Source of the DNA: Escherichia coli
GTDB lineage: Bacteria > Pseudomonadota > Gammaproteobacteria > Enterobacterales > Enterobacteriaceae
DNA: 64,000 bases
NCBI RefSeq assembly: GCF_003334315.1
Contig: NZ_QOWR01000008.1
Reading direction: 5' to 3' (one strand)
Shown: positions 20,428 through 29,909 of the stretch, piece by piece
Layout of the letters: each line of letters starts with the position of its first letter
Numbering within the stretch: the stretch's first letter is position 1
Notes under the pieces: generated by a model
Database searches by the model: none
Seen by the model: the letters and a program-made list of their open reading frames with translations, nothing else
Told to the model about the DNA's origin: nothing
Translations under genes and position numbers: made by a program

Positions 20428-20443
20428 TGTGATGCAGATCACA
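20428..20443. promoter_or_regulatory. CRP binding site in the flhDC class 1 promoter region
   Basis: tgtgatgcagatcaca fits the TGTGA-N6-TCACA CRP consensus at the expected distance upstream of flhD. Confidence 0.7.
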
Positions 20444-28951: not shown

Positions 28952-29036
28952 CGTAAACTCCTGATAGCATTTTGAAAGCCGTTATAGTAGCGGCTTCACA
29001 TCTTCAGCGATAGTCACATCCACCGTCATCAGGACA

Positions 29037-29065
29037 CAAAAAAACCTGCCGGAGCAGGTTTTTTG
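29037..29065 (-). terminator. Rho-independent terminator downstream of azuC
   Basis: Hairpin acctgc/gcaggt flanked by an A-run and a T-run (bidirectional architecture). Confidence 0.6.
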
Positions 29066-29152
29066 TTATCGGAACATATTGCCTGGCGGTACGTCTTTGA
29101 ACGTCTTGCAATAGTTATTGAACATACTTTTCAGTATTTTGCGCAGTTTCAT
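29066..29152 (-). CDS. azuC: Small membrane-associated protein AzuC (28 aa), encoded by the dual-function AzuCR (IsrB) RNA
   Basis: Minus strand translates to MKLRKILKSMFNNYCKTFKDVPPGNMFR then stop, identical to recalled AzuC; below the ORF-track size cut-off. Confidence 0.9.
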   Translation of the reverse strand: MKLRKILKSMFNNYCKTFKDVPPGNMFR

Positions 29153-29414
29153 CGCGGCACTCCGACCATTTGTTATACAGGTGTTATTGTCTTTGCACTT
29201 ATAATATGACAACCATCACAAAAATCAATCTTTATGTGATGTGAATCACATAAATACCCCTTTAATGTTATAAAAATGATAATCAAAAAGCAGCTACCCC
29301 ATTTCTGACACCTACAGATGGCAAGAAATAGCGCCTGCCAGGCGTCTTTTCCGGCCATTGTCGCAGCGCTGTAACGCGTAAAATAGTGCTTTCTTTTACT
29401 CTTCTGGCTGGACC

Positions 29415-29738
29415 ATGAGACTTCTGATTCTGACTCTTTCATTAATAACGCTGGCGGGGTGTACGGTTACTCGCCAGGCCCATGTGAGCGAAGTTGACGC
29501 GGCAACAGGTATTGTACGGTTGGTTTATGACCAGGCTTTTTTGCAGCATGCCCGTACCGATCGTTATGTCAGTCGCGGGATCGCCGATCGCGCATGCCAG
29601 CAGGAAGGCTATACCCACGCTATCCCCTTTGGTCAGCCAGTAGGCAACTGTAGCCTTTTTGCGGGTTCCTTATGTTTAAATACGGAATTCACTTTGTCAT
29701 ATCAGTGCCATCATTCCGCCTTCCCTGTCTTTCTCTAA
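29415..29738 (+). CDS. yecR: Lipoprotein YecR
   Basis: 107-aa ORF with lipobox (LAGC); matches recalled YecR. Confidence 0.92.
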   Translation: MRLLILTLSLITLAGCTVTRQAHVSEVDAATGIVRLVYDQAFLQHARTDRYVSRGIADRACQQEGYTHAIPFGQPVGNCSLFAGSLCLNTEFTLSYQCHHSAFPVFL

Positions 29739-29909
29739 ATGTTTTAATCAGCAAGGGGGATCTTCGCTGATTAAATAAATAGCGGTAATGCGTTTTATTC
29801 CCATTCGTATTTTTAATAAATGAAGTTTATATTTTACCTTTTGCAAATAATAAAATAACAAATTATAGTGACGCCACAGCAACAAATATAACCTTTGTGG
29901 AGCACTATC

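Follow-up and report, generated by a model that had tools for sequence, protein, structure and literature searches.

Three small transcripts linked to carbon metabolism, SgrS/SgrT and AzuCR in Escherichia coli and VcdRP in Vibrio cholerae, act both by base pairing and through an encoded small protein. VcdRP and AzuCR share the further properties of being repressed by CRP and of encoding proteins that activate a metabolic enzyme (PMC12612679; PMC8915982). Neither SgrS nor VcdRP has a sequence relationship to AzuCR, and in both of these RNAs the pairing region is separate from the ORF, whereas the AzuCR pairing region lies inside the ORF, and translation and base pairing compete because the seed and the ORF overlap (PMC8915982). 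The AzuC protein localizes to the inner membrane, is a binding partner of GlpD and increases glycerol-3-phosphate dehydrogenase activity, and its translation has been documented with an SPA-tagged protein and by ribosome profiling (PMC8915982). As a regulatory RNA, AzuR has cadA and galE as base-pairing targets; regulation of cadA-gfp and of galE-gfp was restored by compensatory mutations, and expression of cadA-gfp was higher in an azuCR deletion strain (PMC8915982). Transcription of azuCR is repressed by CRP (PMC8915982) and, according to a 2025 study, also by FNR, NarP and PhoP (PMC12266141), while the small RNA FnrS represses translation of azuC from a target 25–31 nt upstream of its ATG (PMC8915982). 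The functions of AzuCR, its chaperones and the competition between its two activities are covered in the primary report (PMC8915982) and in a review (PMC12612679). All of these components are already known: the gene itself, GlpD as the partner of its protein, cadA and galE as its RNA targets, and CRP, FnrS, FNR, NarP and PhoP as its regulators.

We analyzed a stretch of 64,000 nucleotides from an E. coli contig (NZ_QOWR01000008.1), referred to here as the window, in which the initial annotation had recognized the AzuC peptide on the minus strand at 29066–29152. From the sequence comparison it is almost certain that this locus is E. coli azuC/azuR (AzuCR, formerly IsrB/IS092), intact and near-identical to the K-12 reference; it is the reference gene itself and no mere relative. 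In the RefSeq annotation of K-12 MG1655, the azuC CDS (b4663) occupies 1987873..1987959 on the minus strand, and the ncRNA azuR (b4434) occupies 1987843..1988001 on the same strand (159 nt). The alignment between the window and K-12 is gapless with an offset of 1958807, and the gene order ftnB-yecJ-azuC-yecR-ftnA is common to both, the position between yecJ and yecR being found in ATCC 8739 as well. The published K-12 transcription start site (TSS) is 1988001, with a transcript length of 164 nt (Raina et al. 2022, PMC8915982). The features that could be placed at the locus were the following.

29031–29194, minus strand: AzuCR (IsrB/IS092/AzuR) transcript, with its TSS at the A at 29194, mapped by alignment to K-12.
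29235–29250, no strand assigned: perfect CRP palindrome TGTGA-N6-TCACA, centered at about −48.5 from the TSS, found by pattern search.
29223–29228, minus strand: −35 hexamer TTGATT from the promoter scan, near-invariant across species (mean entropy 0.17).
29205–29220, no strand assigned: second CRP-like site TGTGA-N6-TCATA with one mismatch, found by pattern search and conserved in the alignment.
29201–29206, minus strand: −10 hexamer TATTAT from the promoter scan, with a mean entropy of 0.09 over the 59 species sequences.
29177–29183, minus strand: FnrS pairing site CACCTGT (transcript nt 12–18), 25–31 nt upstream of the ATG.
29160–29163, minus strand: Shine-Dalgarno sequence GGAG, 7 nt before the ATG and essentially invariant in 59 sequences (entropy 0.03).
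29066–29152, minus strand: azuC CDS running from ATG to TAA, 28 codons plus stop, identified by translation, K-12 annotation and family match.
29082–29124, minus strand: ORF-internal segment (transcript nt about 71–113) predicted for AzuR base pairing, complementary to cadA −16 to +25.
29073–29095, minus strand: possible internal stem-loop (transcript nt 100–122), weakly indicated by the RNAalifold consensus.
29038–29064, minus strand: Rho-independent terminator A6-CCTGC-TCCG-GCAGG-T7, identified by folding and conservation.

[quoted passage not shown] Compared over the transcript, the window and K-12 are identical at 163 of 164 nt. The sole difference is nt 60 (window 29135), where the Ile6 codon reads ATA in the window and ATC in K-12, a synonymous change. 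The two strains have an identical AzuC protein and share the promoter, CRP sites, FnrS site, Shine-Dalgarno sequence, terminator and neighboring genes; besides the synonymous change, they differ at promoter position −3 (29197; T in the window, C in K-12) and at three spacer bases of the upstream CRP/FNR palindrome. No recognized functional base is affected by these differences. The spacer difference lies at 29241–29243, where the window reads TTCACA and K-12 reads TTTGTA (CAC vs. TGT). The half-sites of the palindrome are intact relative to K-12, as are the FNR-type half-sites GTGAT/ATCAC.

A database search of the region against the azuC locus, proposed with the initial annotation, gave the same identification: a 331-nt query around azuC matched 5419 of 5426 complete E. 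coli genomes, and the annotated feature beneath the match was always azuC. Many matches were 100% identical, including those to ATCC 8739, strain C and derivatives of B/BL21. The region was absent from the other 7 of the 5426 genomes. Two matches of the same query lay on plasmids, and one chromosome (NZ_CP025856.1) carried two copies.

The promoter elements agree in position with the published start site. The −10 box ends 6 nt before the TSS, which places the promoter match correctly for that start. Upstream of it, the GTGA..TCAC core of the perfect palindrome is invariant in the 59 sequences, and the published FNR site, K-12 1988039–1988058, falls on this same palindrome. Conversion by the K-12 offset places the reported PhoP and NarP sites at about 29239–29269 of the window (PMC12266141). 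The second CRP-like site is centered at about −18.5 and overlaps both the −35/−10 spacer and the −10 box. Its placement would allow repression by occlusion, a mechanism that we infer from this position. Matches to the CRP consensus, counting perfect and one-mismatch sites, numbered three in the 64 kb, and 34 of 100 shuffled sequences also reached three. Since chance alone gives this number fairly often, the weight of the CRP sites rests on their conservation and position. The only other perfect consensus in the window was found at 20428–20443 (TGTGATGCAGATCACA). It lies between flhDC and uspC, about 260 nt ahead of the flhD start, a location that fits the known CRP site for activation of the flhDC promoter.

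The azuC ORF reads ATG AAA CTG ... CGA TAA, with the stop codon TAA at 29068–29066, and translates to the 28 residues MKLRKILKSMFNNYCKTFKDVPPGNMFR. The peptide proposed in the initial annotation proved exact: in a tblastn comparison with the K-12 locus, all 28 residues were identical to K-12 AzuC (YP_002791245.1). AzuC also matched the NCBIfam equivalog NF033642, "stress response protein AzuC", with 75.9 bits against a cut-off of 30 (E = 1.3e-21), and the match spanned profile positions 1–26 of 26. The helical hydrophobic moment of residues 2–19 was 0.60, compared with 0.26 ± 0.13 for shuffled sequences and exceeded by 0.7% of them, and the net charge of the protein was +6. Both values are consistent with the published amphipathic, membrane-associated character of AzuC, as far as such calculated properties can indicate it.

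The gene had been described as lying below the size cut-off of the ORF track, which is plausible. The default cut-off of that track is 60 aa, and in a list made with a minimum of 20 aa, azuC appears only inside a 48-aa TTG-extended ORF (29066–29212). The short length of the protein, which puts it under the ORF filter, is the sole reason why azuC was missed. A real gene is thus invisible to a 60-aa filter, and small-protein and dual-function RNA genes need dedicated detection.

The terminator hairpin follows the azuC stop codon at a distance of two bases and consists of the A6 run (29064–29059), CCTGC (29058–29054), the loop TCCG (29053–29050), GCAGG (29049–29045) and the T7 run (29044–29038). 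This 3′ hairpin was present in both the minimum free energy (MFE) and centroid folds. Its stem and T-run are invariant in the 59 species sequences, the loop varies, and changes in the stem are limited to three U-A to U-G substitutions; because the stem never otherwise varies, it offers no covariation. A generic terminator scan of the region did not list the hairpin, a miss that we attribute to an extension of the stem that takes in the A/T runs and leaves no T tail. Given the fold and the conservation, there is little doubt that the hairpin is a terminator, and the earlier reading of this element is borne out. The terminator is symmetrical (A6-stem-T7), and it could also end plus-strand transcription (29006–29070, plus strand), although no plus-strand gene obviously needs it.

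A search of AzuCR against Rfam 15 found no family at threshold. The best sub-threshold matches were STnc370 on the plus strand (33.4 bits, gathering threshold 54, E = 0.057) and rsmX (23.4 bits, gathering threshold 56); both are due to the terminator, in the case of STnc370 to its symmetry. The null result is the absence of a usable model and not evidence against the identity of AzuCR. Folded as a whole, the transcript was not unusually stable (z = −1.6). A 5-bp hairpin, ACGUU-CAAA-GACGU, appeared in the single-sequence MFE structure and was set aside, as it has no place in the consensus structure of the 59 sequences.

The possible stem-loop at nt 100–122 depends on one variable pair, 105:117, which joins the synonymous third positions of Val21 and residue 25. 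This pair was A-U in 26 sequences, C-G in 11, G-C in 8, U-G in 2 and unpaired in 12, so that it forms in 47 of 59. Shuffled alignments never reached the observed covariation, but this concerns one pair in related sequences. The other pairs of the stem-loop are invariant owing to coding constraint. If formed, the structure might serve as a handle for binding of the chaperones ProQ or Hfq.

Complementarity to the published partners was found at two places on the transcript. The 5′ end of K-12 FnrS (GCAGGUG) pairs with CACCTGT at −11.9 kcal/mol, one G-U pair included, and most other species carry CACCTGC at this site. For cadA, which lies outside the window and was taken from K-12, the interaction was scanned with 28-nt sliding windows, since unrestricted RNAduplex gave unrealistically long, loop-rich duplexes. 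The predicted duplex between AzuCR nt 86–113 and cadA −16 to +15, which covers the Shine-Dalgarno sequence and the AUG, had an energy of −28.0 kcal/mol, and that between nt 71–98 and cadA +1 to +25 had −21.4 kcal/mol. A coarser scan gave a best AzuCR-cadA duplex of −25.2, which was stronger than those of 300/300 shuffled AzuCR sequences and 298/300 shuffled targets. The publication likewise places the pairing region inside the ORF and close to the cadA ribosome-binding site (PMC8915982), and the predicted segment agrees with that placement. Local duplex scans for a pairing site inside the galE coding sequence gave several GC-rich candidates involving the 5′ UTR and early ORF, with no clear winner. 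The initial annotation had stated that the azuC transcript also acts as a base-pairing sRNA (IsrB/AzuR), a claim that accords with the published compensatory mutations (PMC8915982) and with the RefSeq azuR feature at the homologous K-12 position.

The cross-species set was anchored on the neighboring YecJ protein in GTDB contigs, with one genome per species, and comprised 80 loci. An intact AzuC homologue of 27–29 codons was located 65–122 nt upstream of yecJ in 58 of the 80 species. The genera bearing it included Escherichia, Enterobacter, Lelliottia, Leclercia, Kosakonia, Silvania, Pseudescherichia, Pseudocitrobacter and others, and within Citrobacter it was found in the C. amalonaticus/sedlakii group. 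Among the same 80 yecJ-anchored loci, azuC was absent from Salmonella, C. koseri, the C. freundii complex, Buttiauxella and one Escherichia lineage. This distribution is wider than the wording of the literature implies. Across 53 distinct coding sequences, pooled pN/pS was 0.16 in the azuC frame vs. 3.8 and 1.0 in the two shifted frames, and third positions were variable in 26 of 27 codons, compared with 10 of 27 for positions 1 and 2. The gene therefore evolves as protein-coding sequence under purifying selection, with an invariant protein core of ILK...YC.TFKDVPPG.MF. In the alignment of 59 sequences, the mean entropies of the palindromes, the −35 and −10 hexamers, the Shine-Dalgarno sequence and the terminator ranged from 0.03 to 0.63 bits, against 1.55 upstream and 1.23 downstream.

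The 27-aa orthologues of Enterobacter, the C. amalonaticus group, Kosakonia, Leclercia, Lelliottia and related taxa share the position upstream of yecJ, the promoter, the CRP sites, the terminator and the protein core with the Escherichia gene. They end in ...AMF-TGA; Escherichia has CGA or AGA in place of that TGA and terminates at the TAA that follows. Arg28 of Escherichia (codon 28, 29069–29071) is accordingly a one-codon extension produced by a change in the stop codon; outside Escherichia the protein has 27 aa, with one exception (locus L012). The first ten codons are near-invariant in nucleotides, synonymous sites included (codons 2–10, 29123–29149, minus strand). Such invariance could reflect low degeneracy, codon preference or a constraint at the RNA level, as in the initiation region or another pairing site.

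A short ORF by itself says little at this locus. Over the 1.2 kb around azuC, the mechanical list held 20 ORFs with a length of 20 aa or more, and the presence of a 28-codon ORF alone is uninformative for that reason; the RNA, moreover, was first described as an sRNA candidate (PMC8915982). The idea that the ORF is a chance feature of a purely non-coding IsrB, yielding no protein, is nevertheless effectively refuted. What lifts azuC beyond chance is its identity to AzuC together with frame-specific purifying selection across 58 species: the low pN/pS is confined to the azuC frame, and the ORF is intact in all 58 with an invariant TFKDVPPG motif. The conserved GGAG 7 nt upstream, the equivalog match, and the published SPA-tag and ribosome-profiling data (PMC8915982) point the same way. 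Equally close to exclusion is the reading in which the real gene is one of the two longer ORFs that the mechanical list also contains, the 89-aa ORF at 29173–29442 (minus strand) or the 48-aa TTG-extended ORF, and both were rejected as candidates. The 48-aa form would start at the TTG at 29212, upstream of the TSS at 29194 and hence off the transcript. In K-12 the 89-aa ORF, already called spurious in the initial annotation, is interrupted at codon 48 by TAG, and in E. albertii and other Escherichia it is either broken or cannot be aligned. It has no family match and no annotation in K-12 or ATCC 8739, and it runs antisense into the start of yecR. Its apparently "conserved" stretch (..CD..H...DFCDGGHII..) is merely the translation of the CRP-site, −35 and −10 DNA. 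It had also been said to overlap azuC, which applies neither to the CDS nor to the range 29037–29152 given in the initial annotation, both of which are separated from it by a 20-nt gap (29153–29172); the overlap holds only for the 5′ 22 nt of the transcript (29173–29194). The 28-codon ORF accordingly stands as the azuC gene.

A further alternative accepts the protein and questions the RNA, holding that the transcript is physiologically just the AzuC mRNA and that AzuR pairing is a weak, Escherichia-specific or overexpression-dependent side effect. The published repression assays largely used plasmid overexpression, and repression was stronger with a stop-codon mutant (PMC8915982). Synonymous third positions in the predicted cadA-pairing segment also vary freely, with no constraint at the RNA level beyond coding: mean third-position entropy over the 59 sequences was 1.11 bits in codons 11–24 vs. 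0.53 in the other codons, a comparison confounded by codon degeneracy, as the seed codons are mostly four-fold degenerate. Against this alternative, the targets could also co-evolve. It is further opposed by the restoration of cadA-gfp and galE-gfp regulation by compensatory mutations and the increase in cadA-gfp in the deletion strain (PMC8915982), as well as complementarity to the cadA ribosome-binding site that exceeds nearly all shuffled controls. We consider the mRNA-only interpretation improbable and retain the dual function of AzuCR as mRNA and base-pairing RNA.

The locus can be assembled into the following mechanism. A sigma-70 promoter (TTGATT/TATTAT), flanked and overlapped by the two CRP-type palindromes, would drive an RNA of ~160 nt from 29194 on the minus strand, and the transcript would end at the intrinsic terminator (29064–29038). 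Glucose would relieve repression of the promoter by CRP-cAMP, which at the −18.5 site would probably act by occlusion. One fate of the RNA would be translation from the GGAG and ATG (29163/29152) into the cationic, amphipathic AzuC, which would bind GlpD at the membrane and increase its dehydrogenase activity. In the other, the segment inside the ORF would pair with cadA, blocking its ribosome-binding site, and with galE, leading to repression. ProQ would support the stability of AzuCR, and FnrS with Hfq would block azuC translation under anaerobiosis. The identity of the gene, all cis elements, the synteny, the selection on the coding frame and the complementarity to FnrS and cadA were read directly from the sequences compared here. 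For expression, GlpD binding, repression in vivo and dependence on Hfq and ProQ, the scheme draws on the literature.

For E. coli itself these results add nothing biologically new, and the cross-species picture is a by-product of some value. It comprises the wider distribution of AzuC, the lineage-specific changes in the FnrS site and the start codon, the additional C-terminal codon of Escherichia and, as a weak hint, the stem-loop at nt 100–122. It is possible, if on balance unlikely, that AzuC is an old small protein of the Enterobacteriaceae to which riboregulatory layers were added later in particular lineages. This protein-first view is based on AzuC being syntenic and under selection in 58 of 80 species, on the seed showing no extra synonymous constraint and on the FnrS site being replaced in some lineages. 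If it is true, AzuCR would be a tractable case of an mRNA gaining sRNA function.

Individual lineages depart from the common arrangement. In a clade of Enterobacter and Lelliottia (loci L022, L035, L036, L037, L042, L045 and L046), the start codon of azuC is GTG and not ATG. Some 40 nt further upstream, this clade carries AAAGTTGTATAAC vs. AACACCTGCATAAC in other species, and with this replacement, in which AAGTTGT stands for CACCTGC, the FnrS-complementary CACCTG is gone. One further locus (L039) combines the altered UTR with an ATG start, and E. albertii (L008) has CAGATAT at the FnrS site. Judging from these sequences, FnrS control may be lineage-specific. The Escherichia lineage without azuC is represented by Escherichia sp. 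MOD1-EC7003 (L004:1650-2010), in which both yecR and azuC are missing upstream of yecJ. This genome retains the yecJ leader and, ahead of it, a hairpin resembling the terminator (AAAAAAACTGTTCCGGCTGGTTTTTT); this hairpin directly abuts sequence homologous to about 29750–29880 of the window, a stretch located upstream of yecR. The junction suggests a clean deletion of the yecR-azuC module.
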